DNA of 64,000 bases, from the NCBI GenBank assembly GCA_030919125.1, contig CP121470.1, forward strand, positions 1,532,391-1,596,390, written 5' to 3'. Shown here one piece after another: positions 1 to 64,000 of this stretch; the first letter of the stretch is position 1, and each line of letters opens with the position of its first letter. The stretch comes from Methanoregula sp. SKADARSKE-2. GTDB taxonomy: Archaea; Halobacteriota; Methanomicrobia; Methanomicrobiales; Methanospirillaceae. A model generated the notes under the pieces. The model was not told the DNA's origin. It ran no database searches and saw only the letters and a program-made list of their open reading frames with translations. Made by a program: the position numbers and the translations under genes.

Positions 1-955
1 GCTCAAGAACCCCTTGTTTTTTGAGGGTTGCGAGTTGAAACCGGTTAAAGCAGAAGGCCGAGAACAGCATTTTGGTATGCACCCTGAGAACGGTTGTGAC
101 TTTGGTATGAGCAGAATGGAACACATTCTTGATGATGGCATATGGGCGTTCCCCGGGAGATAGGATTCGAGAGATTCGAGCGTTTTTGAGAACATCGCGG
201 ATACCGATCGGATGCCCACGAACACCCCGTTGCATGGTGGTGTTGAAACCTTTTGTTTTGGTACCGAAATATCCTCGGTCACGGTAGATCACCTCTCCTT
301 CGTTCGACAGGTCGATTTGCGAATCGTGGGTTGAGGCAGTTGTAACCTCGAGAGCCCGGATCAGTCCGAAGTCACAATCCTCTTTGGTATGGAGTTTGTA
401 TCCAAAATAAGATTTCTTGCCCTTTATCGCCCATGTTCCATCCCGGCTTCTTCGAGTTTTTGCAGCATCACCCCGGGGTGTATTCGTTGAAGCATGACCG
501 GGCTCTGAGGTGATGAAAGTCGCATCCTGAATGGTGCCTTTTTTGATTTTCAGACATTGTGCATCGAGTTGTCGCTGGAGCTCATCCCAAATAGCCTTAT
601 CCTTTCCGGTCTTTGCCAACCGCTCCCGGAAATACCAGACGGTGGTCTGATCCGGGACCTTGTTAGGATACCCGAGGAATTTCATAAATGATATGCGATC
701 ATTGGCCTGACGCTCAAGTTCGGGATCGGACAGGCTGTACATCGACTGGAGTACCAGCATCTTAACCATGAGAACGATATCAATATTCGGTCGACCGCCC
801 TCTTCGGTCTGGTTTCGATACAGACCTCCCACTACCGTCAGAATCCTCTCCCAATTGATTAATGTCGAAAATCCATCAAGCCGATCCCCGAGTCGTTTGA
901 TACTCTCATACCGCTTCTCGAGCGCAAAATCAACCAGATTTTCCATACTCGTCAT
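1..955 (-). CDS. IS5-family DDE transposase (last few codons lie outside the window)
   Basis: ATG at 955 (MTSMENL...); no differences seen from 8238-9215 over the overlap; DDE motifs IQDATFI, YRDRGY, GERP. Confidence 0.88.
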   Translation of the reverse strand, partial: MTSMENLVDFALEKRYESIKRLGDRLDGFSTLINWERILTVVGGLYRNQTEEGGRPNIDIVLMVKMLVLQSMYSLSDPELERQANDRISFMKFLGYPNKVPDQTTVWYFRERLAKTGKDKAIWDELQRQLDAQCLKIKKGTIQDATFITSEPGHASTNTPRGDAAKTRRSRDGTWAIKGKKSYFGYKLHTKEDCDFGLIRALEVTTASTHDSQIDLSNEGEVIYRDRGYFGTKTKGFNTTMQRGVRGHPIGIRDVLKNARISRILSPGERPYAIIKNVFHSAHTKVTTVLRVHTKMLFSAFCFNRFQLATLKKQGVLE

Positions 956-1010
956 TGATCGTACTAAGATAAAGTACTACCGGCTACAGGGGGAATTTTT
1001 CAGAATTCTC
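1..1010 (-). mobile_element. IS5-family insertion sequence, copy 1 (truncated by window start)
   Basis: Reverse complement of the 1172-bp element at 8183-9354; shared sequence ends at ...cagaattctc (1010), the same terminus as copies 2 and 3. Confidence 0.9.
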
Positions 1011-1049
1011 TCTTAGATCTTTCGGTCCAAACCAAGTGCGTAAGTCCTA
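1011..1049. repeat. 39-bp terminal remnant of the IS701-like element, abutting IS5 copy 1
   Basis: 37/39 identical to 59430-59468, including the terminal repeat gcgtaagtccta. Confidence 0.8.
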
Positions 1050-1222
1050 TTTTATTTTGCCGGATTTTGGGGGCATGAGCTCCCTTGTCATGCGCTGCCG
1101 GTCTTCCCTTCAGAGATCAGGAGCCCAGAATGCATGGCCCGGAAAAATTTCTTTTCGGATTGCCATCGCAGGAACACAGTACAAACCCCTCCCCGGCCAC
1201 AATTTTTGGGGATAAAAAAAAT

Positions 1223-1453
1223 TTACCGTTCTACAAAATCGGCGACGATCCTGCCGATCTCTTTTAGGTTGTCGTTATGAAAATCATAGCTCACAAAGAC
1301 CTTGCCGGATGAATCGACCTGGACGGTGTCAAGAAGATTTGCGTCGTTGATCTTCTCAAAACGCTGGATATTGTACTCCGCTAAAATCTTACGGATTTTC
1401 CGTGCCTTCACCTGCTCATAATTACTCAGTTTTTTTGGCCTTCCGCGTGGCAT
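1223..1453 (-). CDS. Small hypothetical protein with N-terminal AT-hook-like motif (MPRGRPKK)
   Basis: 76-aa ORF with plausible globular composition; AT-rich TATA-like sequence upstream (about 1470-1490); PRGRP is the AT-hook core. Confidence 0.55.
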   Translation of the reverse strand: MPRGRPKKLSNYEQVKARKIRKILAEYNIQRFEKINDANLLDTVQVDSSGKVFVSYDFHNDNLKEIGRIVADFVER

Positions 1454-2037
1454 AATAGAGCATTACCCATAAAAATATATAAAAAATGGGTTTTGTCTCC
1501 TCAACCATACCCCCGCACAAAAAATTTCAGCGTTCTCCCGAGATGATCGCGTCTTCCCACCCCCCTGTTCGTCCCGGTGTGCGAAGTTGCCGAGCAGCGG
1601 GGAAGCCTTCTTCTGTCCTGCCTTCTTGGCCCACATCGCAATCAGCTCCAATTTCGGGATCTCGGGATAGCAGGTGTTTTTTCCGGTACATCCCGTTGCA
1701 CCTCATCGACCGCAGCCGGGAATTAGGGTGGCATAAACCTCATTTCGCTCAGGGTGATCTGTACTGGCAGAAACGCCCTTGAAGGGGCTTGCCATGAGGT
1801 CTGAGCAGGAGTCGGCGGGGCCTGCTAGCTGCTATCTCTCAACCCTTGCCGTCCGCTGTCCCACATCCGGGGTGGGCAGCAGTTTTATTTTTTCGGATCC
1901 CCCCCTCCTGCTCCCGGAATGAACCGCAAGAACCCCTCAGGGGCCGGCCCTGCACGCAAAGCCCGGACGGACCGGAGGAGGAGCGTACCGTTACAGTCAA
2001 AGATCGGAAGAGAAAATTTTCCGGCCATCTGGCTGCC

Positions 2038-3007
2038 TGTCCTATCCCGAAATCATTTGACATCAGATGTAAATACCGATTTGAGCAACTTATCGAATGG
2101 GGCTATCCAGAGGATCATTCAGCAATGTGTCAATGATAAACCCGTTGTTGAGATTGCCCGGTATTTCCAGATTACCCGTCAACGAGTGTATCAGTTCATC
2201 AACCCGTTCAGAGAATCGGGGGAATATCCGGTACTCAGGCAATCTGGAAGAAAGTCCCAAGCCATCGATGATCGAGCAGAAGAGTTGATCCTCGCAACCT
2301 ATCAATCCAACAACATTGGTCCAATCCATCTGGAGAAGAAGATTGAGGAAACACACGGGATCCATATCCCGCATAATCGAATCTATCGGGTATTGTTGAA
2401 CCACGGTCTGGTGGAGATCAACATGAAAAAACGGCAACAGCGGAAATATGTTCGGTATGAACATACTCATTCCATGTCGATGGGGCAGGGAGACTGGAAA
2501 GAGTTCGAACTTAAAGGATCGAAGAAATGGCTGATCGCATTCATGGATGATTCATCCCGCCTCATCACCTGCTACGGGGTATTCGATTCTCCAACTACCG
2601 AGAACACTCTCACGGTGCTGAATCAGGGATTCCAGATGTAAGGTACGCCCCGCGAGATCCTCACTGACAACAGTACACAATTCGTTTCAGCTCGGAACCG
2701 TGAATAGGCCCATCATAAATTCGGAGAGTTCCTTGTTCATCACAACATAAAACACATCCCAACCAGGATAAAACACCCTCAAACGAACGGCAAAATTGAA
2801 CGGTTCTTCGGAGAAGTCGAACGAAGGATCGCGAAGTTCGGTTCTGTCGATAAAATTCTTCACTGGCACAATGTCATCAAACCTCACATGAGTGAGTCTC
2901 GATTTCGATGAGCCTTATAACGCATTCTGGTACCGTCTACCCCAGGAGAGGATTCTGAAATATGCGCAGAAATGGTTATATGTGTAAAATCAATTCGGGA
3001 TATCACA
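2038..3007 (+). mobile_element. IS481-family insertion sequence, copy 1 (970 bp)
   Basis: TGT...ACA termini with imperfect inverted repeats tgtcctatcccgaaat / attcgggatatcaca; differs from 35638-36607 at 5 positions. Confidence 0.88.
2057..2987 (+). pseudogene. IS481-family transposase pseudogene
   Basis: HTH plus integrase-core motifs (QGDWKE, FMDDSSR, TDN, PQTNGKIERFF); nonsense TAA at 2639-2641 (TAC in copy 2) and TAG at 2705-2707 (CAG in copy 2); 4-bp duplication gagt at 2890-2897. Confidence 0.88.
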
Positions 3008-3142
3008 AACGTCTGGCTGCCCGACCGGCTTCGGCTTCAAGATCGTTATCTCTCCCGAAGATTTCACGAGAATTAAATAGGAGGCACCATATGGTACCTG
3101 TACTCTCCCGTTCCCTAAAAGCCGGGACAGTTCGAGGCGAGG

Positions 3143-3871
3143 ATGATGAAAGAAGAAGTAAAGATCCCGATACACTACATCGAGGCGGCCGAGATCCTGA
3201 AAAATAGCCTGAAGATCAACGGGTCGCCGGTTGCGATGCGGTTTGCCACAAAGAAGGAGGATATCCCCGAAGGGATGGCGGAGATCGACAGGACCATCCG
3301 GCACTGCTCGATGGTCAACCTCGCCCGGAGGGAAGGCCGGATCTTCTATGCCACCGGTCCAAGACACGAATGCAATGGCGGGGCATGGGCGCTCGGGCTC
3401 CGCGAGATCACCGAGACGCTGAAGAACGGGGAGTTCTACTACAAGCTCGGAAAATTCGAGAGCTCGGCCTCGTGCAAGCGGACGATCGAGAGGATCCCCC
3501 ACCTCGACAGAAACGAGACCTACGCGACGATGTACGCCCCGCTCGAAAAGGCACCCTTCACCCCACAGGTGATCATCATCATTGCAAACCCGTGGAGCAT
3601 GCTCAAGCTCTCGCAGAGCACCCTCTTCCGAATGGGCGGGAGGATCCATGCGGAGTTTGCCGGTATCCAGTCGGTCTGCTCGGATACCTGCGCCCAGACG
3701 TATATCAACGGCAAGGTAAACTTTTCGCTCGGGTGCGACGGGTCGCGGAAGTTCTCCGGCATCGATGATGCGGAGATGGTGATGGGGATCCCGACAGAGC
3801 TCCTGCCCGATATTACCGAGGCGTTGCAGGTTGTTGCCGCTGCGCCGGGATCTAAGCTGGGAACAAAATAA
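3143..3871 (+). CDS. DUF169 family protein (COG2043-like)
   Basis: Motifs RHCSMV, HECNGG, QSVCSD, SLGCDGSRK are characteristic of the archaeal DUF169 family; host-like codon usage. Confidence 0.8.
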   Translation: MMKEEVKIPIHYIEAAEILKNSLKINGSPVAMRFATKKEDIPEGMAEIDRTIRHCSMVNLARREGRIFYATGPRHECNGGAWALGLREITETLKNGEFYYKLGKFESSASCKRTIERIPHLDRNETYATMYAPLEKAPFTPQVIIIIANPWSMLKLSQSTLFRMGGRIHAEFAGIQSVCSDTCAQTYINGKVNFSLGCDGSRKFSGIDDAEMVMGIPTELLPDITEALQVVAAAPGSKLGTK

Positions 3872-4268
3872 TCCGGAATTATTTTTCACCACTCTTAAAA
3901 ACGCATTTTATTGCCGGGTAATTTCCGGTTGGAGCGGGTAATTTCCGTTCAGATTAGCCGACCCGGAAATTTTTGATAACCCGGGGGAATTAAAAATTCC
4001 CAGGAAAGCAAAAGAGACAAACGCGACCCCTTGTTCCTGGTGGTGGAAGCCTTCAAGGTACGCCTCCAGATCTCCGTTGCAAAATTTTAAAGGAGAAGTT
4101 CCGGTGATTTTTTTGCACTGCAGTAAACCATGGAAACCCCAGGCACGAACACCGTCAACGATACGCTTCGCGTAAGTGCCGGCCCAACTCTCAGATTTAT
4201 ATGGGAGTACGGGGCAGACCGGTCTCTGCCCTTCGTCACGCCCCATCCGCTCCATAAGGCGACCGGTG

Positions 4269-4556
4269 CTATGATAACTCCGCCCAGATCTCTCCCACGG
4301 CAGATGCGGTCCGGTACTCCTCATCGGAAAATCTCGGGTTGCGATCTTCGAGCTCACAGAGCGCGGATGTCTCCGCATCGCCATCCTTCCCGTATGCCCC
4401 CTCGCGGGATGCGGAGGCGATCTCCAGAACATCGAACGAGAGCCTCCGCACCCGGATGAGAGCCTCCCGGCAGACCGCTGGCGATGCAGCCGGCACGGTA
4501 TCCCGGATCCGGTTCAAGAGGGCGGTCTCATTCGGGGCTGCGCACGATGGCACCAA
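4269..4556 (-). CDS. Hypothetical small protein
   Basis: 95-aa ORF with helical, protein-like composition; TTG start; no recognised family. Confidence 0.35.
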   Translation of the reverse strand: MVPSCAAPNETALLNRIRDTVPAASPAVCREALIRVRRLSFDVLEIASASREGAYGKDGDAETSALCELEDRNPRFSDEEYRTASAVGEIWAELS

Positions 4557-5058: not shown

Positions 5059-5275
5059 TCACACCGCATTTACCGGGCTGTGTTTTTTGATCTCCGCGAT
5101 GAACTCCGGGCCGTACCGGTCGAGCTTGATCCCGCCAACGCCATGGATCGTGCCAAAACGTTCCCGGCTGCATGGCCGTACCTGCGCCATCTCCCGGAGG
5201 CTTCGGTCCGGAAAGACCATGTACGGCGGCACATTGTCCCGGAGAGCAACCGAGCTGCGGAGCGATTTGAGGCTA
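5059..5275 (-). pseudogene. recQ: Detached RecQ HRDC domain (+1 frameshift)
   Basis: SLKSLRSSVALRDNVPPYMVFPDRSLREMA...GVGGIKLDRYG matches the HRDC consensus; removing one T (ttc ctc [t]agc ctc) joins it to DETLFL. Confidence 0.85.
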
Positions 5276-6910
5276 GAGGAATAACGTTTCGTCATCGACC
5301 CCGGCCGGATCAGCTTCACCGGTGCAAAGACGGGGGGGGAGTTCGGGACGGCTGACGGAATCGGGAGCAGAGCGCCAACCTTGTTCCGCGGTCACCGGCC
5401 CGGGCAGCATGATCCGGTCCCTCCCGTGCAGGAGCCTGAAGCCCTCTGCGGTCAGCGAGATGACCGGATATTCGTCCCCGGACCGGGCGAGACAACCCTG
5501 CCGGATGAGATCGGCTATCCATGTCCGGTACTCTTCGCGGCTGAACTTCTTCCCACTCCCGTACACCGGGAGTGCGTCGAGCCCCAGCTCGTGGATCCTT
5601 TTAGCCCGTGCACCCCGGAGAACACCGGAAATGATCTCGATCCCGAACTTTGCCGGCAACTGTTGCACGCAGGCCGCAATCATCTGCGCCTGCACAGTGC
5701 CATCGATCTCTTGACGGGGATCGGTGCAGGTGTCGCACGATCCGCAGTTCTCCTCCTCAAGGCTCTCATCGAAGTACCTGAGCAGGAATCTCCGCCTACA
5801 CCCGGTGCTCTCGCAGTAATCCACCATCTCCTGCAGCTTGCAGAGCGCCCTCTTCACCTGCCCCCCGTTGCCGTCACGTTCGAGCATCCACCGTATACGG
5901 CCAGAATCGACGCGGCTGAAGAGGAGGACACACTCGCAGAATTTCCCGTCCCGCCCGGCCCGGCCGGTCTCCTGGTAGTACGACTCGATCGACTTCGGGA
6001 GATCGTAGTGAATAACGTACCGGACATCCGGCTTGTCGATGCCCATCCCGAAGGCAACCGTAGCGCAGACCACCCGGACCGTTCCCTTGATGAAGCCGTC
6101 CTGCACCTTCTCCCGGGTTTTTGCCGAAAGGCCGGCATGGTACGCGAGCGCCGAGAAGCCCCATCTCCGGAGTTCCCGTGCGATCTCTTCGGTCTCCTTC
6201 TTGGACAGGCAGTACACGATCCCGGCATCGTCCCGGTGCTGCCCGATAAAGGTTGCAAGAAACTGAAGCGGGTTCTTCTTGGGAATTACCCGGTATTCGA
6301 TGTTCTTCCGGTTGAAACTCCCGACAAATTTCCGGGGGTGTGAAAGCCCGAGCTGCCGGACAATATCTGCACGGACATCTTTGACCGCGGTTGCGGTCAG
6401 GGCGATGACCGGCACACCAGGAAAACATCTCTTCAGCCGGGCAAGCTGCCGGTACTCGGGCCGGAAGTTGTGCCCCCACTCGGAGATGCAATGGGCCTCA
6501 TCGATCGCAATGAGCCGGAGACCAACGTTCGCAAGCGAATCCAGGAAGTTCGGTTGGACGCATCTCTCCGGAGAGACAAAAAGGAGCCGGAGTTCTCCGG
6601 CAGCGAGCTCTTCATCGATCTTCGAGCGATCCCAGAACCCGAGGGTGCTGTTGTACGCAGCCGCGGGAATCCGCCGGGCATTGAGGCTGTCGATCTGATC
6701 CTTCATCAGCGAGATCAGGGGCGAGATGACGAGCGTGAGACCCCCAAGCCGGAGGGCCGGGAGCTGGTAGCAGAGCGATTTGCCGCCACCGGTCGCAAGG
6801 ATTGCGAGCGTATCGTTACCCTCAAGGACCGAGCGGATGATCTCCTCCTGATGCGGCAAAAACGAGGTTCGGCCCCAGTGTTTTTTCAGGAGCTCGTGAA
6901 GGGTATTCAT
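5273..6910 (-). CDS. recQ: ATP-dependent DNA helicase RecQ, ending just before its HRDC domain
   Basis: ATGGGKS Walker A, DEAH, HNFRPEY, ATVAFGMGIDKPDVR, YYQETGRAGRDG, Zn motif CRRRFLL...CGSCDTC, RQC domain; TAG at 5273-5275 where the HRDC frame continues. Confidence 0.93.
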   Translation of the reverse strand: MNTLHELLKKHWGRTSFLPHQEEIIRSVLEGNDTLAILATGGGKSLCYQLPALRLGGLTLVISPLISLMKDQIDSLNARRIPAAAYNSTLGFWDRSKIDEELAAGELRLLFVSPERCVQPNFLDSLANVGLRLIAIDEAHCISEWGHNFRPEYRQLARLKRCFPGVPVIALTATAVKDVRADIVRQLGLSHPRKFVGSFNRKNIEYRVIPKKNPLQFLATFIGQHRDDAGIVYCLSKKETEEIARELRRWGFSALAYHAGLSAKTREKVQDGFIKGTVRVVCATVAFGMGIDKPDVRYVIHYDLPKSIESYYQETGRAGRDGKFCECVLLFSRVDSGRIRWMLERDGNGGQVKRALCKLQEMVDYCESTGCRRRFLLRYFDESLEEENCGSCDTCTDPRQEIDGTVQAQMIAACVQQLPAKFGIEIISGVLRGARAKRIHELGLDALPVYGSGKKFSREEYRTWIADLIRQGCLARSGDEYPVISLTAEGFRLLHGRDRIMLPGPVTAEQGWRSAPDSVSRPELPPRLCTGEADPAGVDDETLFL

Positions 6911-7221: not shown

Positions 7222-7765
7222 ATGTCTGATGATCTCCCCCCGGCCCGGAGCGCATTGGCCCGGAATATTTTTCCGGTACCTGGGGAGATCTGGTCTGGAC
7301 CGGCTGGTTCTCCTTTGCCGCGATGAAACAGGAGTTCCGGAACCTCCCGGGCGAGCCCGGGCTCTACCGGATCCGGGCCGGGGGGTTGCGGGGCGGCAGG
7401 CTCGCTGCCTGCCAGCAGGAGAACCCGGCACCCCGCCCCTCCCGGAGATTGGATCGCCTGGTGATCCCGACTGGATGGGACTTTGCTGGAGTGCGCGGGA
7501 ACTTGTTCCTCAAACATCGATCTCCCCGGGACCGGGCGTTTTTGTCATCAGCGTCCCCGGATCGGAGGAGATCCTCGTCATCGGTCAGGCAGCTGACTGC
7601 GCAGCGCGACTGCGGGAATTCTGTTCAGTTTGTCCCGATAGCGTGCAGGTCTCCTTAAGCCCGGTACCGCCCTCTCACCACAAGGAGCTGGCAAACGATC
7701 TCCTCGGAAATTATTTCTCGAAATTCAGGCGGGTTCCGGCCTGGCAGTTCGGGAGAACGGAGTAG
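7222..7765 (+). pseudogene. Degraded two-repeat GIY-YIG-like nuclease gene
   Basis: Fragments in different frames: EYFSGTWGDLVWTGW...LPGEPGLYRIR, then GDPDWMGLCWS...PGVFVI...ILVIGQAAD...KELANDLLGNYF; frameshifts plus an apparent internal deletion after RIRAGG. Confidence 0.5.
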
Positions 7766-8182
7766 TCTTCCCTCGCCCCGGCAGGATTTTTTTAAAATGG
7801 AAGATCCGGTTTGCCCCGGCCGAACCATCCGGATTTTTTGTTGGATCTTCCGGCAATCGCGTCCCGGCTGGCGTAAATAGAGAAGAATTTAAAACAGAAA
7901 TACCGGTGCCTACCCGCACAGGTACTGGACCGAACAGCAAGACGAACACCCGTGCAGCAAAAGTCAAAGCAGTAATTCCCATCGGAGGCGGCAGGAACCC
8001 TTCCGACAGAAAAGCACAGATCCCCCCCAAAGTTTCGCTATCCCTTACGTTTCTGATTTTTGATGGTCCGGGGAGACCGGTCTTTGCGGGAATTCTGCCT
8101 AAAGGGGTCAGGTTTTTTGACAACATCCCGGTCCAATTGATCCAGCCTGCGCCAGGACCTGCCGCAGCGCGACCACATATTA

Positions 8183-9364: not shown

Positions 9365-9634
9365 TTACCGGCGAACGCAGTAGAATCCGCCGCGCTGGTG
9401 ATACTTGGTGTACAGCTCGCAGCCCGAGCAGAAACATCCGAACAATTTCATGCCGGTTGCCGATGACTGCCCGCGGGCGCAGAACAGCTCTGTTGGCTGG
9501 AATTTTTCAAGCGTGTGTTTCCTGTAGTTCTGGCAGTTCCTGCAATACTTCCTGCAGATGGCCCGGTTCTCTTCGTTGTCTTCGATCACTGGTTTGTTTC
9601 CCACTTCAATCATGGTAAAGAGGTTGGCGTACAT
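9365..9634 (-). CDS. Cys-rich small protein, DUF2769-like
   Basis: Pattern C-x3-C-x2-C...LFCARG.S...GCFCSGC...FYC typical of methanogen DUF2769 proteins. Confidence 0.7.
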   Translation of the reverse strand: MYANLFTMIEVGNKPVIEDNEENRAICRKYCRNCQNYRKHTLEKFQPTELFCARGQSSATGMKLFGCFCSGCELYTKYHQRGGFYCVRR

Positions 9635-54152: not shown

Positions 54153-54526
54153 GTGCTCCTTAAAATTTTTCTCCCATGGTCTCAGGATGCTCCAGATCCG
54201 GCGCCACCCAACAGTGGCCTTGGAGGTTTGATCAGGAATTTATGCGAGAAGGTCTACAGATCGGACCCGTGCAGGAATCATGAACACCAAAAAGAGAGGA
54301 GATACGGGAAGACCAGCCCTTGGTCCGATCATGGCAAGCATTATAAAGAATTTGCACTATTATCACACTGCTATAATATCGGGCGAGGCTCTTCTGGCGC
54401 ACCGCTTTTCGGAAAAACCCGCAATTCCTCTCCGGTCAAAGCTTGAGGTTCATCATGTTCCTGATCCACCTTCCCGCAACTCTCCTCACGCTCCTTCCCA
54501 TCTCCTCCCCCGGCCCTTCCCCAAAG

Positions 54527-55912
54527 ATGCTCGACCGGATCGTGGATCGTGACAGGGATCTGCTCGTTGCATCCGTTCAGGAACTGATCCGGATACCCAG
54601 CATAGCGGGAGAACCCGAGCCCGGGGCACCGTTTGGCCCCGGCCCGCGGGACGCGCTCACCGGTGCACTCGGCATCGCCGAACGGTTCGGCTTTTCCCCA
54701 ACAAATCTCGGCAACTACGCGGGATTTGCGGAGTTCGGGAGTGGGGATGAGTATGTCGGGATCCTCGGCCACGTGGATGAGGTTCCGGAAGGTGAGGACT
54801 GGACCCATCCTCCATTCGGCGGGGAGATCCATGGCGGGAAGATCTATGGCAGGGGGGCACTCGATGACAAGGGGCCGGCCCTTGCCGCCCTCTTCGGGGC
54901 CCGGGCGGTCATGGAGAGCGGTCTTCCCCTCTCGCGAAGGGTCCGGGTCATCTTCGGTGCGGATGAGGAGACCGGGGAGGAAGACATCGCCCACTACCTC
55001 TCCATGGAAAGACCACCGGTATCCGGTTTTACGCCGGATGCTGACTTCCCGGTCGTCTTTGCCGAGAAGGGGATCCTCTGGATCGAACTTCAGAGGAACT
55101 TCTCAACAAGTTCCGCAGAGACACTGGTAAAGAAGATCGAAGGCGGATCGGCGCCGAACATGGTGCCGGACCGGGCCACTGCCGAACTGCTGGCCGCACA
55201 CCCGGAGATCGTTATCGCTAACTGCGGGGAGTTTGTGCGCCAGACCGGATTCCCGCTTGAGGCAAGATTGGAGCGAGGATGCGTGATCGTCACCGCACGG
55301 GGGCAGAGCGCCCATGCCTCGACGCCGGAAAAAGGGAGAAATGCTATCATGTTCCTCCTCGGCTTTCTCGCGAGCCAGAAGCTGAGCCCGGGGGCGATGA
55401 CCGACGCCATCCGGTTTTTCAGCAGGGCGATCGGATGTGAGTTGAACGGGAGATCCTTTGGCATTGAGATCTCCGACGCGCCTTCAGGTAGTCTCACGCT
55501 CAATGCGGGCAGGATCGAGGCTACCGAGAGCACCTTCCGGCTGATCCTCGATATCCGGTACCCGGTGACCAGCGATAAAACGGATGTAGTGAACCGGATC
55601 CGATCCACCCTGCGTACGAGCGGATTCTCCGGGAAGATCCTGGAGCACCAGCCCCCGCTCCATTACCCAGAGGACTCAGCCCTTGTCCGGACCCTCGCGA
55701 TCGTATACCGGGAGCAGACCGGGATAATGGCGCCTCCTGTCGCGATCGGGGGCGGGACCTATGCCCGCAGCCTCCCGAACATTGTCGCATTCGGCCCGTG
55801 CCGTCCCGGACAGGATCCGCCGATCCATCGGCAGGACGAGTGCATTGCGATCGACGAGTTGGTAGCGATGGCGAAGATCTATGCCCACGCGATCTACGAG
55901 CTGGCAAAGTAG
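54527..55912 (+). CDS. pepV: M20 family dipeptidase (PepV/Sapep type)
   Basis: GHVD, YGRGALDDKGP, GADEETG, FTPDADFPVVFAEKG, GGGTYAR; start taken at MLDRIV. Confidence 0.85.
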   Translation: MLDRIVDRDRDLLVASVQELIRIPSIAGEPEPGAPFGPGPRDALTGALGIAERFGFSPTNLGNYAGFAEFGSGDEYVGILGHVDEVPEGEDWTHPPFGGEIHGGKIYGRGALDDKGPALAALFGARAVMESGLPLSRRVRVIFGADEETGEEDIAHYLSMERPPVSGFTPDADFPVVFAEKGILWIELQRNFSTSSAETLVKKIEGGSAPNMVPDRATAELLAAHPEIVIANCGEFVRQTGFPLEARLERGCVIVTARGQSAHASTPEKGRNAIMFLLGFLASQKLSPGAMTDAIRFFSRAIGCELNGRSFGIEISDAPSGSLTLNAGRIEATESTFRLILDIRYPVTSDKTDVVNRIRSTLRTSGFSGKILEHQPPLHYPEDSALVRTLAIVYREQTGIMAPPVAIGGGTYARSLPNIVAFGPCRPGQDPPIHRQDECIAIDELVAMAKIYAHAIYELAK

Positions 55913-56316: not shown

Positions 56317-57711
56317 TTAATCGTTTCTGTACTGGCTCTTCGAGAGTGCGTGAAGATCGAAGATCGCATCGGCCTCGGCTTCTGTGAGAATACCCCACTC
56401 CACGGCGAGATCCCGGATCGGTCTGTGGTTCACCATAGACTCGTGTGCGATCTCCGCCGCTTTCAGGTACCCAATCCTGGGGGTCAGCAGGGTCGCGAGG
56501 ATCGGGTTCGTGGGTACTGACATCAGCAGGTGATCACGGTTCGGCTCAATCCCATCGATGCAGTGGGTCGTGAAGACCGGAAGGTAGTGGTTGAGGAGGT
56601 TTATCGATTCGAGAACGTTATTGACGATAATCGGGGTCATTACGTTCAGCTCGAACTGGTCGGCCTGAGAAGCCATCGAGACCACGGCATCGTTGCCGAT
56701 AATCTGGAATGCGATCATGTCAGCGCACTCGGCCATCACCGGGTTGACCTTGCCGGGCATGATGGACGACCCCGGCTGGACCGGTGGGAGGATGATCTCA
56801 TCGAGGTCGACGCTCGGTCCCGAGTTCATGAGCCGGAGATCGTTTGCGATCCGGATCAGTTCCAGTGCCAGCTCCCGGAGGGAGCTGGAGAACGCGCCCA
56901 TCTCCGCCCGACTCTGGAGTGCCTCGAAGCTGTTCCGGGCCGGGACAAGGCCGAGGCCGGTGATCTCCCGAAGGTTCCGGATGACTGCATCCCGGTACTC
57001 CGGGGGGGCGTTCGCCCCGGTCCCGGTCGCGGTCCCGCCGATCGCGACCTCAAGGAGCTCACTCCCCCGCTCACGGATTCGCTTCGCAGCCCTCGAGATC
57101 GCAGAGGCGTACGCGAGGAACTCATCGCCGAGCGTGACCGGGATCGCGTCCATAAGGTGGGTCCGACCGGTCTTTGACAGGGAGACAAATCTCTCTCCTT
57201 TTTGTTTCAGCGATGCGGCGAGGTCAAGAAGCACCCGGTCAAGTACCTGCGCATCCTTCATGATCGCGATATGGCAGGAGGTAGGGAACGTATCGTTCGT
57301 GGACTGGGCGAGGTTGACGTGATCGTTCGGGCTCAGGTACTCGTACTCCCCACGCCTCCTTCCGAGCAGTTCGAGCGCCCGGTTCGCGATCACCTCGTTC
57401 AGGTTCATGTTGAAGGAGGTCCCGGCCCTGACCTGGAAGATGTCGACCGGGAACTGATCGGTAAGTTTACCGGCAAGGATCTCATCCGCAGCAGCCACGA
57501 TCACCTCTCCCCGTTCCCGGTCGAGGATGCCCAGTTCCCTGTTGTTGAGGGCGGCTGCTTTCTTGATCGCCGCGTACGAGAAGATCAATTCGGATCGCAC
57601 GCGCCGGCCGGTCACGGGGAAGTTCCTCACCGCCCGCAGCGTCTGGATCCCGTAGTAAGCGTCGTCCGGGAGAGCGAGCACCCCGAGCGGGTCGCGCTCG
57701 AGCCGCATCAC
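56317..57711 (-). CDS. aspA: Aspartate ammonia-lyase / class II fumarase family protein (possibly decaying)
   Basis: YYGIQTLRA, HVNLAQSTND, GRTHLMDA, GSSIMPGKVNP; several conserved Gly/Ala positions are substituted. Confidence 0.85.
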   Translation of the reverse strand: MMRLERDPLGVLALPDDAYYGIQTLRAVRNFPVTGRRVRSELIFSYAAIKKAAALNNRELGILDRERGEVIVAAADEILAGKLTDQFPVDIFQVRAGTSFNMNLNEVIANRALELLGRRRGEYEYLSPNDHVNLAQSTNDTFPTSCHIAIMKDAQVLDRVLLDLAASLKQKGERFVSLSKTGRTHLMDAIPVTLGDEFLAYASAISRAAKRIRERGSELLEVAIGGTATGTGANAPPEYRDAVIRNLREITGLGLVPARNSFEALQSRAEMGAFSSSLRELALELIRIANDLRLMNSGPSVDLDEIILPPVQPGSSIMPGKVNPVMAECADMIAFQIIGNDAVVSMASQADQFELNVMTPIIVNNVLESINLLNHYLPVFTTHCIDGIEPNRDHLLMSVPTNPILATLLTPRIGYLKAAEIAHESMVNHRPIRDLAVEWGILTEAEADAIFDLHALSKSQYRND

Positions 57712-57746: not shown

Positions 57747-58372
57747 TCAGGTATCCTCATGGACGGACCGTTTTATCTGTGTCGGTTCCTGCCGGGCCTG
57801 CCCGATCGCACGGTTTGGGGGGAGATCGTCCGCACAGATCTTCTGGCAGGTGGCGTGGAACTCGTTGGCACAGCGATGCGCGCCAGCGGCAGAGAGTCCC
57901 CGAAGTGCTGACCCGCCACCGATACCGGGATCGATCCCGCCCATCGGGTGGTGCCGCCCTGGCGGGATCGGGATTGGATCCGGCATGGGGTCCACACCGG
58001 CAATATCCATCGGAGACTGCCGGATGCCGGGGTGCACGCAGCCGACTTCGAACCCCATCTCTCTGCGATCACGGTTATGATCGACCGTCCCACGACACCC
58101 CGGGGCGTGTCCTCGATTGAGTGCGGGGCGTACCGTGCCATCTTCCATTCGCCCCGGTTGTTTTTGATCCCGCCCTGACCGGGAACATTCATGAGCGAGG
58201 CGTTCATCCCACCCTGGGCGGTGACCGAGGGGGACCGGAGCGGGTACACTCGGGGGATGGCCGAACAGGAGATCCCGGCACGGTCGATCTGAAGTGCGGA
58301 CCGAGGCCCAGTAACTACCCCGCCATGGATGTTTACATCCTGCTCGTGTACTACAGGCGCGTCCGTCAACAA
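57747..58372 (-). pseudogene. Succinate dehydrogenase / fumarate reductase flavoprotein (SdhA/FrdA/TfrA-like) relic
   Basis: Eroded FAD-binding start (DV...GG..TG.RSALQ...YPLRSPSVTAQGGMNASL) joined by deletion and frameshift to PGIRQ..MDIAGVDP...PIPI.PG.HH.MGGID...GL.AAG; about 0.63 kb remains. Confidence 0.7.
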
Positions 58373-58412
58373 AATTTCCTCCTTTGTGCCTGCACTTCTC
58401 CATCATGGTAGA

Positions 58413-59468
58413 TAGGACTTACGCGTTTGAAGGCAGATTCGAACAAGAGATATTCATCACAGCACTACAAAAATAATCAGATTAGAACGCCGTGGAAGCG
58501 ATAAAGAGAGAAGAAGCGGATCGATGAATCGAGCGTTTCGACTCGTACCAGCTGGAACCTGTATTCAATCGATGGGTTTCGAGGCGAAGAAATGCCAGCA
58601 ACGAGAGCAGAATATGTCCTTGTTGAACAACCTCTTTTGGGACGTTTCCGATGCATCGAGAATATCGGTAGCCCAATGTTCGGGTTCCTTATCAGAGTGA
58701 ACGATCCTAAATAGCTTGATGAAACCGTATTGTCTCAGATGAACAACTCTTCCTTCGGGAGGAATCTCAATCTCAGAAACTGAACGGTTGTACGTATTAT
58801 CAGGATCAACCAACCGGTTGGATTTGAGACGGGTACACCAATGCCACTTCAGCGTGCGGATCAATTTCAGGTTGGCGATACTCGAATACCACGAATCAAA
58901 GATGACACATCCCGGCTGAAACTTTCTTTCTTTGGCTGCTCGTAGCATATCCCGGAAATGATCATTTTTGTTTTTCCCGTCTTTGTCTGGACAATAGATC
59001 CGGAAATCTACCGAAACTATCGCAGAACCATCAGTCCAAATGGTTGAGATTAGGTTGATTCCCTGAACTACCCGATGATGCTTCCCACTCCAGTGCCGGG
59101 TCACCAGTTCAATCTGATGGGAATACGGTTTGTCGAGGGTACTATCATCGATTACCAATACTCCTTCGTTAGCCCGGAGCAACCGTTGCGCTTCCTCATA
59201 CAGCGCCCCCGTGTGGTGAGGCTGGCTGCCTCTCTAACAAACGCTTGACGGAAGCGTGAGCTATTGATACTGGTTCAGCGGGAAAACACCGGGATGCCTC
59301 TGTACACGAGCAAACCTGATACGTCGATATCAGAAAGTTTACAAAATTGCCGCTCGTGCATTTCGGTGGATTCACTCTCGTTCGATCTCCATCCCGGGTT
59401 GGTCTAACCCTTGGATGGGCGCTACTAACTCTTAGATCTTTCGGTCAAAACCAAGGGCGTAAGTCCTA
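58413..59468 (-). mobile_element. IS701-family insertion sequence (degenerate)
   Basis: 12-bp terminal inverted repeats taggacttacgc (58413-58424) / gcgtaagtccta (59457-59468). Confidence 0.75.
58482..59375 (-). pseudogene. IS701-family transposase pseudogene
   Basis: MNPPKC...SCTEASRC, LVIDDSTLDKPY, IFDSWYSS; frameshift near 59215; the segment between ASET and KEVVQQGHI is deleted. Confidence 0.82.
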
Positions 59469-59738
59469 GTTTATAAGAACCGGATACCGGATAAATCTAA
59501 GCCCCGCGCTCATAATCATTTGTGCAACACAGCAGCCCGGGCAGGAAATTTATTTTGCATTTACTTTCAAGGTTCCTGATCCAGCACATCCCTTTACGAT
59601 GAACGCCGCCCCCGAAGGGGCGCCCCAGCTTGAAAGCGTTTCCTGGCCGACCTGACTTAATCAGCAGGAGGGAGGATTATTCGCAAAAGTTTTGAAAATA
59701 TTTGCTCTGTAGAAAAAAAGGGAATTCTGAATCCCGGA

Positions 59739-60014: not shown

Positions 60015-60296
60015 TCAGTCACGATTTTTATACGCGGCAAGGAGACCTTCTGCGTATTCGGCACTCTTTCTTGCGGGTATGTAGTTGAATTTCTGGACCA
60101 GTCTGAGTAATTCCGCGGAAACTTCGGTCTCATCCGAGAGGCCGAGATTCGCTACTTCGGAAAAAATCCAGTCAAGGCGATCTATCCCGGTCTCCTTACC
60201 AGCGATAGGGATGCGTCTGATGGTGATACGATCCGGGGGAATCCCCCCGCAGATTGAACAATATGCCCCATCTTTTCCATCGTCTGTCATGCTCAC
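60015..60296 (-). CDS. Hypothetical protein with CxxC motif
   Basis: YCSICGG...GKETGID...NYIP; 4-nt overlap with the cupin gene. Confidence 0.7.
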   Translation of the reverse strand: MSMTDDGKDGAYCSICGGIPPDRITIRRIPIAGKETGIDRLDWIFSEVANLGLSDETEVSAELLRLVQKFNYIPARKSAEYAEGLLAAYKNRD

Positions 60297-60667
60297 TCCT
60301 TAATCATGACAAGGATCATCTTGAATTTGGTGATAGCCGAGAGCGCATGGGGTACATTTGCAGGGAAGATAATCGTCTCGCCAACGGTCATCCGGCAGGT
60401 TGTCCCTGCCACCCACACCTCGCACTCGCCATCGAGAATTGTCACCATGGCATCGAACGGTGCGGTGTGCTCCGAGAGACCCTCATTCTCGTCAAAGGAG
60501 AAGAGGGTTATATTCCCGCTCTTCCGAGAGATGATCATCCGGCTCGCAACGGTCCCTTCCTGGTATTTTACCAGGTCAGGAAGCCGCAGCACTTTTCCGA
60601 CAAGTTCGCCGCGTTTACGCTCATGTCTCTCAAGATCTTCGGGGGTTACCGGTTTGTACTCGGCCAT
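60293..60667 (-). CDS. Cupin-domain protein
   Basis: TLFSFD..EGLSEHTAPFDA...G...PANVPHAL; start taken at MAEYK. Confidence 0.85.
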   Translation of the reverse strand: MAEYKPVTPEDLERHERKRGELVGKVLRLPDLVKYQEGTVASRMIISRKSGNITLFSFDENEGLSEHTAPFDAMVTILDGECEVWVAGTTCRMTVGETIIFPANVPHALSAITKFKMILVMIKE

Positions 60668-60814
60668 GGGGAACACATCTTTGTTTGAGAATAGGCGCCG
60701 GGAATATATAGTTCCCCTTTTCCCAACAGGTATAAAAGTTCCAACCGAAGAAAAAAGGATAATCAGCCCCGGGATCTGCAAGGGAGTGAATACCTCCCGG
60801 GAAGGACCGGGACG

Positions 60815-61038
60815 CTACGCTTCGATATGGATTATTCCAACCGGGCAGAGTTCTGCCGCATTCCAGGCACACGTTTCCTGATCTGCAAGCGGGGTTCCCT
60901 CTGCGTTGTTCTTGTTTATCCTGAACCCTTCAAGGATCTGCGAGAAGGAGACGTCCGGATTCTGTTCGAAGAAATCCGGACAACTGTCCCAGAAGTTCCC
61001 GCAACTCACACGATCTCCCTTTCAATGGTAACTATCAT
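60815..61038 (-). pseudogene. Single-cluster ferredoxin pseudogene
   Basis: MIVTIER then a 1-bp loss; first Cys apparently CGT (Arg); ..SCG...CPDFFE...AAELCPVGIIH. Confidence 0.72.
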
Positions 61039-61119
61039 CTTCTACCTTCCTCCAAAAGACCACTACGTCCTGGCTCTTCACACCCTTTTTGTCTGCACCG
61101 ATATAAGATTTTGGCCCGG

Positions 61120-62931
61120 TCATCCCAGTCTCAGCTCCGCAAGTTTTGCCGGTGTCGGTATGCCTTCCGCATCCCAGCCGCGGGCTGCATAATATTCATC
61201 GAGAAGCGGTTCCCGCCTCCAGACATGGCCCGCAGGATCTCCCTCATTTAATGGTTCTGTCAGCAGCCGGCCCGGCAGGGTGTCATCCGCTTTCGTATAA
61301 CCGACCCGTACATTGAACAGCTTCTGGACATTCCAGATCCGTTCGCCGATCCGGAGAAGTTCCGACTCATCAACGGGCATCCCGGTCACCGCGGTAACGA
61401 GCGCCGCATAATCCGGTGCACCCATGGGGGCCCGTGAGGTACACAGGCAGATCCCTGCTGCATCGATTGCAGCAGTTAGATCCTGGAACGTTTTGGTCCA
61501 GACCGCTTTTCCTTCGTTCGTAAACGGATCAAGTTTCTGGGGGAGTCCGAGGACTTCCGGGGAGACCATGTACCCATTGATGTGATCTCCGCCCCTGACC
61601 CCGGTGGCATAGCTGATGCCCTGCCCCTGGAGGCCCCGCGGATCATACCCGGTAAGCTCCTGTTTCTTGACGCTCATCGAAAGTTCCGGGTGGCCGTATT
61701 TCGAAGCAAACCGGTAGGATCCTTCGGCCATCTCGTTCCCAATCCCTCCCCGGTACCCCATTTTTTTGACAAGATCGTACATCCGGGGCCCGTCCCCAAA
61801 CGCGCTCTCTTCCCGGATGAAACCCCGCTCTGACATCTCCATCGCGCAGGCGACCGTCACACCGGCCGATATCGCGTCAAGACCAAGCTCATTGCACGCA
61901 AAGTTTGCCCGGGTAACCCAGAGGAGATCATCGACACCGCAGTCGGCACCGAGAGCCCAGGCATTCTCGTATTCAGGGCATTCATTTTCAATTCCGTCAA
62001 CCTTTGTCCCGCGACCGCATGCGATGAAACAACCATAACACGGCTTTCTCCGGACGAGAAGGGATTTTGTGAGGGCTTCTCCGGAGATATTCTCTGCACC
62101 GGCAGTGGGTGGTCTGGTGATTATTTGTCGGAAGGATGTAGTTGTTGTTGATAAGATTCATCAGGACCTCTGTGCCATAACTCGCGAGTCCCTTGCTCGT
62201 AACCTGCCCGTCCTGGATCTTCTTCCGGGCAGACATAACTGCCTCTTTGAATGCGGCTGGTTTTGCAATTTCAATCCTTCCCGAACCCCGGGCTGCAACG
62301 GCCTTGAGCTTCTTTGAGCCCATGACTGCCCCGAGCCCCCCCTGCCTGCTGCCCGGAACTGGTCGCTCATAATACAGGCGATTCTCGACAATTTCTCACC
62401 GGCAGACCCGATGCATGCGACCCTGACATGCGGATCGGCGAGATCACTCTGGATACCGGCAGTTGTCTCGGTAACAGTCATTCCCCAGTATGGTGATGCG
62501 TCACGGATCTCCGCACTCCCGTGGTGGATCCAGAGGAAGACCGGTTTTTTGGATTTCCCGCTGAACACGACTGCGTCGAAACCCGCAACTTTCAGTTCGT
62601 GGCCGAAGAATGCCCCACGGTCTGAGGAGCAGAGCGTTTCGTTGAGCGGGGACTTGGAAACAACCTGGTGCCGCCCACCGAGTGGGACCCCGGTCCCGGT
62701 GAGCGGGCCGGTGGCAAAGACGATAACATTTTCCGGTCCCAGCGCGTCTGCATCTGCGGGGACGAGATCTCTTGCCAGTTTTACGCCAAAACCCCTGCCC
62801 CCGAGAAACTGACGCTTCAGCTCTTCGGGAACGGGTTGTCGGTTCACCGATCCTCGTGAGAGATCAACGAAGAGGATCGATTCTGCATATCCATCGGATT
62901 CTGTCACTTGTATCACCCGGTCTACCGGCAT
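61120..62931 (-). pseudogene. aor: Aldehyde:ferredoxin oxidoreductase (AOR family) pseudogene
   Basis: LGGRGFG, ATGPLTG, KSPL, RAAGRGG/LGAVMGSKKLKA, PEYE, GLDAIS, GYDPR, YYAARGWD; frameshifts near 62338 and 62105. Confidence 0.88.
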
Positions 62932-63065
62932 TCGTCCGCGCTCTTCTTCTCCCCTCTCCGGGTTTTCGACCCATCCAATGGAAAAATTCCAACGGGAGAG
63001 ACGGCAGGGCTGAGAAGAGAGCACATGTGGCCGTGAGAGCGCAATACACCTGAAAGGTAATAAAG

Positions 63066-63740
63066 TTAGCTTAACAAAAATCCGGTACTGCGGAAGGGCC
63101 GTTTTTCCCGCACTACAAAACCCTGTTGAGGGAAGAAGGGGAGCCAACCGACGAGTTTCAGAATTACAGAGGGAACGTCAAGACATACCAGCGTCGGGAG
63201 AAGGAGATAGCCGGCGAAGAGTTTGAACGGGGTGGCCATCCCCGGGTTTATCGCAACAAGAAGGTTCTGGGGATTTCCGATGGGGCTCATGACACTTTTG
63301 GGGGTGACGGCAAACGCGAGGGTAAGAAGGAGAAGCCGGGACCGGATCCGGAATTCCCGGCCATCCCGAGCATAGAGGTCCCGATGTTTGCCAGGGTATC
63401 GTTCATGAGCAATGCAAAGAGATGCCCGGGGCCCAGGAGAATTGCAAGGATCAGGTGATCGGGGGGGTTTGCCCTGGGGAGGAGGAGGTGTGCAAGGGTT
63501 GCAAGGTACCCGCCTCGACAGAAGAGCTCCGCAAACGATGAACATTCCGAACAAGAAGAGGTGGAGACCGGGATTTATCGCGGTTACCGCATCGGGCAAC
63601 GAGATTTGCCCGGTAACGAGGAGCGCGATTGCTCCCCCGAGCATAATCTGCCAGATTCTCAGCTTGTACCTTCCTACCTGCCGGATAGCAATCAGCAGGA
63701 AGACTGCGGCAAGAACGACGATTGCGAGATACGTACCCGG
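63066..63740 (-). pseudogene. ArsB/NhaD-type anion permease, truncated pseudogene
   Basis: IWQIMLGGA, FLFGMF, LMNDTL, SPIGNPQNLLVA motifs; frameshifts; stops after about half the expected length. Confidence 0.7.
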
Positions 63741-64000
63741 GATCTTTTCCGATTATTGGAGATGCGTTAGTATTTGTTCCGGTAATCGGGAATAGCCAAA
63801 TCTTCCGGAAGGAGAGAAGGTTTTTCCTTCAGGCTGCTCTGGCTGTTCTGGAAAAGCAGGGGGTGGGAGAGATGCGGGGATTAAAGCGATGCGGGTTTTT
63901 CCTCGCGCCCGACATGCCAATGCAGGAGAATTCCCGCCTCGATCCGGTGTGCTTCCGTAAGCGTGAGTTTTGTAAATTCCGACTCTTTGAAAAATCCGGT

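Follow-up and report, generated by a model that had tools for sequence, protein, structure and literature searches.

Gene erosion and insertion sequence expansion in a 64-kb chromosomal window from Candidatus Methanoregula pelomyxae, which lives as an endosymbiont in the amoeba Pelomyxa schiedti

Gene content of the window

The window analysed here is a 64-kb stretch (64,000 nucleotides (nt), contig CP121470.1) of the chromosome of Candidatus Methanoregula pelomyxae, in which broken genes and copies of insertion sequences (IS) lie among intact core genes. The published genome from which it comes is a closed single scaffold of 1,949,073 bp (Treitli et al. 2023, PMC10579272), with 54.8% GC, 1991 coding sequences (CDS) and 99.7% completeness (Table 1 in PMC10579272). 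Fluorescence in situ hybridization (FISH) and transmission electron microscopy (TEM) place this methanogen free in the cytosol of its host, the anaerobic amoeba Pelomyxa schiedti, where it is concentrated around the nuclei, and a block of methanogenesis with bromoethanesulfonate (BES) kills the host, showing that the methanogen is essential to it (PMC10579272). The first-pass annotation, made from the letters alone, had placed the window in a lineage of protist endosymbionts within Methanomicrobiales, and this assignment proved correct, the host being an amoeba. The window gyrB and gyrA have the lengths given in the published gene table (METHP_01785, 2079 bp, and METHP_01786, 2553 bp), and a cbiN open reading frame (ORF) of 103 amino acids (aa) fits the listed 309 bp (PMC10579272). 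Window GyrB is at most 86% identical to any GTDB species representative, its best matches all being metagenome-assembled genomes (MAGs) of Methanoregula or Methanoregulaceae. All (100%) of the window gyrase words are present in X1-X4, four small 2021 runs from one sample, which fits these being Pelomyxa schiedti single-cell libraries.

The state of each gene was judged from Pfam scans, from blastx and blastn comparison with loci of relatives, and from self-blast of the window. The blastx subjects were the ORFs of 80 gyrB neighbourhoods of relatives, with extra loci obtained through homologues of RpiA, AspA and RecQ; the AspA search, in which the nearest relative reached 76%, supplied a free-living gene order (L088) that revealed the fumarate reductase relics. 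Other loci used include L089 and L090, from a relative ~98% identical in DNA, and L081, from a 99% relative, both in other public data; L084 and L091, ~50 kb apart on one 198-kb contig (JGI 3300013126) with 86-88% protein and ~84-89% DNA identity to the window; L086 and L092, contigs of an ENA assembly from more distant clade members; and L087, a locus of free-living type whose core genes follow the order seen in the window. Runs X5, X6, X8 and X13, ~98% identical relatives, were used to compare lesion states, Logan contigs assembled run by run from X1-X4 served as read support, and ratios of nonsynonymous to synonymous substitution rates (dN/dS) were computed against L084 (88% relative). A codon-usage score split real from spurious ORFs poorly at 55% GC and was taken as a hint only, although it revealed the HRDC and pirin relics.

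On this basis, 37-38 of the ~55 resident (non-IS) genes are intact and 16-17 are broken, two or three hypothetical genes having an uncertain status (Table 1). These counts bear out the ~17 broken and ~38 intact genes of the first-pass annotation, and its other statements on the locus also stood: self-comparison and Pfam recover its seven IS copies, in four families; its large deletions within genes measure 0.3-2.9 kb; nonsense mutations, deletions of several hundred bp and motif erosion, which it had set apart from homopolymer errors, were each found, with indels outside homopolymers; and gyrA, gyrB, acs, tbp, tfs, rpiA, artA and the Ni/Co uptake genes, listed there as lesion-free, have full-length Pfam or orthologue coverage, as does nikR. 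By our own annotation, the window divides into 47% intact CDS, 18% pseudogene remains, 12% IS and 23% DNA without assignment, so that intact CDS amount to 53% of the non-IS DNA. The share of the window taken up by ORFs of 200 aa or more is 0.575, about 2 standard deviations under the mean of 44 loci of other Methanoregulaceae (0.729 +/- 0.073), and this coverage is uneven, at 0.46 in 1-20,000 and 0.66 in 22,001-42,000. Called genes cover ~90% of the compact free-living locus L087. Pfam returned no match for ten further ORFs from 12.5-12.9, 14.2-14.7, 16.8-17.2, 41.4-42.7 and 59.7-60.1 kb, and the 64-kb window holds no tRNA genes.

In the RecQ gene, base-level alignment places the extra base outside a homopolymer (...CTCTAGC...), where it creates an immediate TAG and leaves HRDC in another frame (5062-5391); correspondingly, Pfam finds the helicase, Zn-binding and RQC domains and no HRDC, an HRDC-like ORF standing separately, and the RecQ of a 98% relative (P0242) has 616 aa with HRDC. 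The shortened RecQ may remain functional. The membrane protein gene at 11813 carries an extra nt at 12074 and has lost ~100 bp at 11945/11954. Pfam recovers the ornithine cyclodeaminase (OCD) in two frames (51-113 and 141-305 of 314; blastx against L037), the FecCD-type permease over 97-276 of 311, with residues 111-279 and 269-316 of the L004 orthologue in two frames, and the aldehyde:ferredoxin oxidoreductase (AOR) in three ORFs that hold AFOR_C 48-385, AFOR_C 2-47 with AFOR_N 179-198, and the N-terminal part. In the TIM-barrel gene, HPGYSP*EQV stands opposite HPGYAAYEQV of the L004 orthologue; read-through by selenocysteine or pyrrolysine at 25140 was rejected, as the codon is TAA and relatives encode tyrosine. 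Within the relic of ADP-forming acetyl-CoA synthetase (ACD), ATP-grasp_5 covers 7-117 of 221. The S-adenosylmethionine (SAM)-methyltransferase gene has 391 aa in L084, and the hypothetical gene at 7388 is called with 172 aa in L089, its L091 counterpart having 272 aa. Of fumarate reductase there remain residues 219-252 (34) of the Fe-S subunit and three fragments of the flavoprotein in three frames, ending at IS-D.

Two clusters are broken in part. Both fumarate reductase genes are destroyed beside an intact aspartate ammonia-lyase/fumarase gene; if the genome holds no second fumarate reductase copy, the reductive branch to succinate drawn for Ca. Methanoregula pelomyxae would be broken. In the FecCD-type ABC cluster (22886-26611), the permease is dead while the ATPase and the binding protein are intact, and the cluster looks like an operon midway through loss.

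Among the intact genes, the Ni/Co uptake block (18004-22640) is 82-87% identical to relatives. A blastx extension to 41324 that would have implied a lesion in artA was rejected, the subject ORF being open at a contig edge and antisense to tfs. For the window-specific stretch 41570-42483, Pfam found no match for its ORFs and no fetched locus holds a homologue.

The IS copies are near-identical within a family and probably numerous elsewhere in the genome. Copies of IS-A measure ~1,172 bp, are 99.5-100% identical and, since a 325-aa ORF holds DUF772 and DDE_Tnp_1, are classed as IS5-like; the copies in the window show no clear target duplication. The two IS-B copies (99.5% identical) combine rve and HTH_28 with imperfect inverted ends, features like those of IS481/IS3. 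Copy 1 of IS-B is flanked by a 10-bp direct repeat, TCTGGCTGCC, which is an intact target duplication, and is missing from L089/L090, in which its flanks are contiguous. Relative to copy 2, its transposase has two nonsense codons (Y to stop, Q to stop) and three missense changes, so that copy 1 is either a defective copy mobilised in trans or one that decayed fast after insertion. The IS-C copy may be degenerate, because separate ORFs encode its HTH and DDE parts and most other genomic copies differ from it at 16061, 16405 and 16467, some also being short of one base at 16098 or 16500.

Contigs of IS-A, IS-B and IS-D reach 7,000-13,500 in k-mer depth, whereas unique DNA lies at 105-340. This corresponds to roughly 30-60 genomic copies each of IS-A, IS-B and IS-D, with 10-30 of IS-C, numbers that are rough because the libraries were amplified and unique contigs vary up to 1.8-fold. 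The published methanogen gene table has an excess of entries with the ORF lengths of IS-A (978 bp, 29 entries), IS-B (855 bp, 16) and IS-C (492 bp, 24), whereas the two bacterial gene tables of the same paper have 0-6 entries of these lengths. In L081, an IS lies between tbp and acs (9436-12554) and acs is called as four ORFs, whereas the window has an intact acs and nothing inserted at the corresponding junction. The L081 counterpart of window 58413-59468 sits elsewhere in L081, which points to IS-mediated rearrangement between near-identical strains.

Table 1. Features of the 64-kb window, by position
Feature	Position	Strand	State	Lesion or basis
IS-A copy 1	1..1011	-	IS	IS5-like, DUF772 and DDE_Tnp_1; cut by window start; 100% identical to 8182-9192
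Solo IS-D terminal fragment	1012..1049		IS	adjoins IS-A copy 1; matches 59429-59474 and IS-D end in L081
76-aa hypothetical gene	1223..1453	-	intact	equal length in L089/L090
IS-B copy 1	2038..3011	+	IS	rve integrase-type transposase, 974 bp, strain-specific
DUF169 gene	3143..3871	+	intact	Pfam 2-208 of 209; 242 aa, also in L089
174-aa hypothetical gene	3908..4432	-	intact	equal length in L089/L090
RecQ helicase	5062..6910	-	broken	frameshift, +1 nt at 5275; protein stops at 545 aa
Hypothetical gene	7388..7771	+	uncertain	~275 bp missing in 5' part; window 7388/7424 = L089 9526/9216
IS-A copy 2	8183..9354	+	IS	Pfam; synteny with 98% relative stops here
DUF2769 gene	9365..9634	-	intact	Pfam 1-57 of 57
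MFS transporter	10184..11566	+	intact	Pfam MFS_1
Membrane protein, no known family	11813..12718	-	broken	two ORFs, different frames; no Pfam match
OCD/mu-crystallin	13382..14162	+	broken	5' truncation at 13382; 31-bp deletion at 13578
UbiA prenyltransferase fragment	14879..15432	-	broken	5' third removed by IS-C; Pfam 84-230 of 250; boundary 15432/15433
IS-C	15433..16651	+	IS	IS630-like; HTH_32 and DDE_3 in separate ORFs (Pfam)
Conserved 111-aa hypothetical gene	17264..17599	-	intact	residues 1-111 of 111 vs L034, 76% identity
nikR	18004..18426	-	intact	full-length Pfam; Ni/Co uptake block 18004..22640
cbiM, PDGLE gene, ABC ATPase, cbiQ	18787..21480	+	intact	full-length Pfam
cbiM2, cbiN	21613..22640	+	intact	full-length Pfam
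FecCD-type permease	22886..23533	+	broken	~830 bp deleted (22862/22886) incl. first ~110 codons; -1 nt at 23408
ABC ATPase of FecCD-type transporter	23557..24828	+	intact	Pfam ABC_tran; residues 7-425 of 428 vs L004
Xylose-isomerase-like TIM-barrel gene (AP_endonuc_2)	24825..25574	+	broken	nonsense TAC to TAA at 25140-25142; Pfam halves flank stop
Periplasmic binding protein	25574..26611	+	intact	Peripla_BP_2 1-234 of 235
Conserved 102-aa hypothetical gene	27022..27330	+	intact	residues 1-102 of 102 vs L004, 81%
gyrB	27799..29877	+	intact	full-length, 86% to Methanoregula MAGs
gyrA	29867..32419	+	intact	full-length, 86% to Methanoregula MAGs
Archaeosortase (artA) paralogue	32952..33811	+	broken	frameshift near 33290; L087 ArtA 4-99 and 107-271 in two frames; weak Exosortase_EpsH
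IS-A copy 3	34401..35572	-	IS	self-comparison
Solo IS-C end	35573..35620		IS	between IS-A copy 3 and IS-B copy 2; reverse-complement of 15434-15481
IS-B copy 2	35637..36610	+	IS	intact 284-aa rve transposase; 96% identical to element in L092
sppA (S49 peptidase), RibD_C, CDP-alcohol phosphatidyltransferase, 2'-5' RNA ligase, artA, tfs	36977..41498		intact	Pfam; collinear with L084, L087
Window-specific 0.9-kb stretch	41570..42483			no recognisable gene; flanks adjacent in L084
Conserved 110-aa hypothetical gene	42742..43074	+	intact	relatives' loci
Rubrerythrin relic	43369..43623	+	broken	C-terminal half only; L084 orthologue 151 aa (Pfam Rubrerythrin); 78% nt alignment
ACD relic	43720..44568	-	broken	Succ_CoA_lig and ATP-grasp_5 parts; deletions ~190, ~530 bp vs L084
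acs	44811..46706	+	intact	Pfam; equal-length orthologues in L084, L087
tbp	46758..47318	+	intact	Pfam; equal-length orthologues in L084, L087
124-aa gene	47535..47909	+	intact	equal-length orthologues in L084, L087
rpiA	47892..48707	-	intact	Pfam; equal-length orthologues in L084, L087
Response-regulator/PAS/histidine-kinase gene	49005..50534	-	intact	Pfam; split in L084 and L086
Methyltransferase-like gene	50902..51702	-	probably intact	residues 18-208 of 208 vs L053; weak Pfam matches
Pirin relic	51760..52048	-	broken	~500 bp deleted; pirin motif in ORF; L086 pirin 317 aa, L084 split
TYW2/Trm5 methyltransferase, DUF7860 gene	52108..53395	+	intact	Pfam; Trm5 truncated in L084
SAM-methyltransferase relic	53426..53786	-	broken	last ~120 codons; ~2.9-kb deletion at 53785; window 53786/53784 = L084 4421/1507
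HEAT-repeat protein relic	53788..54137	-	broken	residues 4-118 of 214, two frames (blastx vs L088)
M20 peptidase	54443..55912	+	intact	Pfam; order as in L088
Aspartate ammonia-lyase/fumarase (aspA)	56317..57711	-	intact	Pfam; order as in L088
Fumarate reductase (TfrA, TfrB) scraps	57768..58384	-	broken	blastx vs L088 and L088 gene order
IS-D	58413..59468	-	IS	DDE_5 transposase; 12-bp terminal inverted repeat TAGGACTTACGC; 96-97% identical to L081
End fragment of fifth IS type	59470..59535		IS	66 bp; matches ends of three L081 IS copies, one L089
Cupin gene, small ferredoxin gene	60293..61009	-	intact	Pfam
AOR	61123..63177	-	broken	three frames; -2 nt at 62103; 1-nt difference at 62335
CitMHS/ArsB-type permease relic	63069..63752	-	broken	several frameshifts; Pfam CitMHS only 118-173 of 336

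Reality and age of the lesions

Contigs of X1-X4 match the window with 0 mismatches and 0 gaps over all unique DNA, that is, over 1023-2066, 2986-8210, 9320-15459, 16617-34428, 36584-58275 and 59507-64000, at a word depth of 105-340. Because of this exact match, errors of sequencing or assembly can be ruled out to the extent that contigs allow, and at that level the read support called for in the first-pass annotation was found at every unique segment. In X1 and X3 the unique contigs lie up to 1.8-fold apart in depth (e.g., 206-244 vs 128-130), with 9320-21696 on one side and 21675-34428 together with 2986-8210 on the other, and a contig break with an alternative junction falls at 21675-21821, inside cbiM2. 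The break and the depth shift are likely due to amplification bias or to a paralogous copy elsewhere.

Nine of the ten lesions tested are absent from the ~98% identical relatives, which hold the intact state of RecQ, the FecCD-type permease, the TIM-barrel gene, AOR, OCD and one membrane gene; these nine lesions are therefore younger than ~2% divergence. At the premature stop of the TIM-barrel gene, X5, X6, X8 and X13 all have C at 25142, giving TAC (tyrosine), and all four carry AA at 62103, where the window AOR is short of 2 nt; the 1-nt state at 62335 is common to the window and two of the relatives. In the FecCD-type permease, X6 and X8 have ~835-847 nt where the window has 23, and X5, X6 and X8 have the extra G at 23408. 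The 31 nt deleted from the OCD gene are present in X5, whereas the synteny of X6 and X8 stops at 13383. In the membrane gene, X6 and X13 are without the extra base at 12074, and X6 and X8 hold ~90-100 bp more. In the CitMHS/ArsB region, the relatives carry differing private indels. The date of "recently" that the first-pass annotation put on the erosion fits these comparisons, as well as a GC content that is not lowered (54.6% in the window) and a genome that is only moderately small.

Reductive evolution and competing explanations

The window is very probably a typical chromosome stretch of Ca. Methanoregula pelomyxae, whose genome would be in an early phase of reductive evolution. Life inside a host cell would make many genes dispensable, namely those for redox and stress enzymes, for alternative acetate and aldehyde metabolism, for some transporters and for paralogues, and would also shrink the effective population, weakening selection against disabling mutations and transposition. 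By the k-mer depths, four or more IS families have multiplied to tens of copies, inserting into genes and promoting deletions and rearrangements, while nonsense mutations, small indels and deletions of 0.03-3 kb inactivate dispensable genes singly. Needed genes remain intact, apparently under purifying selection, including those for gyrase, TBP, TFS, RpiA, archaeosortase, lipid synthesis, acs and Ni/Co uptake, the last presumably serving hydrogenase, F430 and cobamide enzymes. The role of host restriction as the driver, and the extension of this pattern to the rest of the genome, are inferred.

The proposal of the first-pass annotation that the kept and lost genes report on the niche is plausible. 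Against L084, dN/dS is 0.02-0.31 for most intact genes (TBP 0.02, RibD_C 0.10, Acs 0.11), lying within 0.10-0.28 in the block 36977-41498 and 0.02-0.46 in the block 44811-48707, with higher values for RpiA (0.46) and DUF7860 (0.56); three relics have 0.36-0.71 (rubrerythrin 0.36, pirin 0.71). These ratios would fit purifying selection on the kept genes and relaxation on the relics. The losses of AOR, ACD, fumarate reductase, rubrerythrin, pirin, OCD, FecCD, CitMHS/ArsB and the artA and ubiA paralogues are plausibly ones that a cytosolic hydrogen scavenger could spare. In the view of the genome paper, acetate and acetyl-CoA are the entry to biosynthesis in Ca. Methanoregula pelomyxae (PMC10579272), and the retention of acs fits such an entry. 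Similarly, two Ni/Co uptake operons and nikR fit a nickel- and cobalt-hungry methanogen.

Several points weigh against so broad a reading. The gene-by-gene evidence covers 64 kb of a 1.95-Mb genome, genome-wide support coming indirectly from IS depth, gene-length counts and genome size, and the IS copy numbers derive from uneven, single-cell amplified libraries. The dN/dS comparison was with L084, and a general relaxation of selection would go beyond it. Selectivity is partly circular, since genes found broken are then called dispensable, and it rests on ~55 genes, the repair gene RecQ being among those hit. The intracellular life implied by "host-restricted" is demonstrated by FISH, TEM and BES, but close relatives occur in environmental metagenomes and near-identical 16S sequences occur in ciliates, which speaks against taking vertical inheritance and strict restriction to one host as given.

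The same facts sustain the strongest competitor, in which IS bloom and decay came about without host restriction, either in a protist associate that is facultative or passed on horizontally and keeps a free-living stage, or in a bottlenecked free-living population; we consider it unlikely. Two ciliate species harbour a lineage whose 16S differs by two bases (PMC11378729). Additionally, relatives of 98-99% identity lie on long contigs of environmental assemblies, metagenomes of sludge, sediment, wetland and freshwater contain window gyrase words, and the genome, at 1.95 Mb still, has undergone no AT shift. However, to our knowledge ~50% intact coding together with four expanded IS families is not found in free-living methanogens, and the environmental samples may themselves hold the protist hosts, a point raised in the literature for lake Methanoregula. 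The position of the methanogen in the amoeba cytosol and the death of the host without methanogenesis (PMC10579272) also speak for host-bound life.

Somewhat less credible still is that the window is a local plasticity zone, i.e., a junk island rich in IS, or a hotspot of rearrangement, within a Methanoregula genome that is elsewhere ordinary and densely coding. It is a single 64-kb window, its lesion density varies along its length, as the long-ORF coverage given above shows, and between acs and tfs the ACD, rubrerythrin and 110-aa genes are lineage-specific additions, absent from free-living L087. Nevertheless, it is unlike an island, because single-copy core genes (gyrAB, tbp, tfs, rpiA, trm5, lipid synthesis) lie scattered among its relics. 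Moreover, k-mer depth and gene-length counts put tens of IS copies elsewhere, 1143 of the 1991 CDS (57%) in the 1.95-Mb genome are called "hypothetical", and L084 and L091, two regions of one relative, are both eroded. It is very improbable that the lesions are errors or chimeras of single-cell amplification, assembly or gap closure: the genome was indeed built from single-cell Pelomyxa schiedti libraries made by multiple displacement amplification and closed by polymerase chain reaction (PMC10579272), and amplification chimeras are common in such data, but four separate runs are base-for-base identical on unique segments at a depth of 105-340, the lesions comprise a base substitution, non-homopolymer indels and deletions with diverged remnants, and relatives from unrelated projects show like decay.

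Early reductive evolution, the preferred reading, can be placed among known cases. Cultured Methanoregula genomes measure ~2.5-2.8 Mb, so 1.95 Mb without a GC drop is a moderate reduction, and the features of advanced, organelle-like genomes (very small, AT-rich, gene-dense, free of mobile elements) are not those of a genome at 1.95 Mb and, in the window, 54.6% GC, with a low coding density and many IS. Sodalis glossinidius, Mycobacterium leprae, Serratia symbiotica, Shigella and Burkholderia mallei are bacteria with early-stage reductive genomes, in which about half of the DNA is intact coding, pseudogenes number in the hundreds, IS bursts involve few families, IS mediate deletions and rearrangements, and AT shift is slight; their hosts are animals, whereas the present case is an archaeon in an amoeba with figures from a 64-kb window. 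Beinart et al. 2018 reportedly describe the genome of a methanogenic endosymbiont of an anaerobic protist. The same question of genome degradation in protist methanogens is raised by a preprint on ciliate-associated Methanocorpusculum, which argues that the classic degradation pattern fits many marine symbioses poorly (bioRxiv 10.64898/2026.05.13.724943); in contrast, degradation is clear in the present window.

Closer counterparts are Methanobrevibacter sp. NOE of Nyctotherus ovalis, with 1.91 Mb and 187 curated pseudogenes and regarded as an obligate endosymbiont (Table 1 in PMC11287868), and Methanocorpusculum sp. MCE of Metopus contortus (both Lind et al. 2018). Like Ca. Methanoregula pelomyxae, both are methanogens inside anaerobic protists that accumulate pseudogenes and keep core metabolism; they differ in belonging to other orders or genera and in having ciliate hosts, and near-identical relatives that date private lesions are a feature of the present case. 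Methanobrevibacter cononymphae, from termite-gut Cononympha, is likewise protist-associated and has a raised count of 148 pseudogenes, concentrated in repair, defence and mobilome (PMC11287868), but it is interpreted as facultative, its genome is about as large as those of free-living relatives, and a comparable drop in coding density has not been reported.

Symbiont genome decay is known almost entirely from bacteria, with few intracellular archaeal genomes and conflicting reports on their degradation. The organism, its genome and the endosymbiosis are already published and the process itself is known from bacteria and from the NOE pseudogene counts, while the erosion is not described: the main text of the genome paper mentions no pseudogene, transposase, insertion, genome reduction, mobile element or erosion, its gene table labels no transposase or pseudogene for the methanogen (PMC10579272), and a literature search on Methanoregula pseudogenes and transposases found nothing. 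Ca. Methanoregula pelomyxae offers the closed genome of a proven essential archaeal endosymbiont, very probably at a textbook early stage, with an IS bloom, ~50% intact coding in the window and fresh lesions. Because near-identical relatives exist, single lesions can be ordered in time, which would allow the rate and sequence of gene losses, and the part played by IS, to be measured directly in an archaeon. The published annotation of 1991 CDS needs revision, and metabolic maps may include dead genes such as those for fumarate reductase, AOR, ACD and the FecCD permease.

Erosion across the clade

The 198-kb JGI contig is as eroded as the window, and the genes affected are partly different. Called genes cover 75% of L084 and 66% of L091, with split genes for pirin, histidine kinase, Trm5 and a dehydrogenase; of these, histidine kinase and Trm5 are intact in the window, as is acs, which is broken in L081. 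L086 and L092 have repeated IS copies, and X8 has a 156-bp deletion of its own and several indels within relic regions that are also relics in the window. It is conceivable, with the odds slightly against it, that the whole "environmental" Methanoregula clade is protist-associated and that each lineage is now decaying independently, with different genes hit and most lesions younger than ~2% divergence. Such a clade may span the amoeba symbiont, its 98-99% DNA relatives from other hosts or samples and the lineages of 86-88% protein identity in the JGI and long-read metagenome assemblies. If so, it would be a natural replicated experiment on the onset of archaeal genome shrinkage and could mark protist hosts hidden in metagenomes. 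The signature of erosion in metagenome contigs offers a way to spot protist-borne methanogens now counted as free-living.

The close relatives appear to vary in gene content as well, because window 59647-60675, with the cupin gene and its upstream region, is present in X8 and has no counterpart in X5, X6 and X13. Adjacent to this segment, at 60676-61850, which holds the ferredoxin gene together with the 3' part of AOR, word depth in X5 exceeds 100,000, against 1,700-17,000 nearby, which suggests that X5 is RNA or a strongly biased library. If it is RNA, the AOR region of this relative would be highly transcribed.

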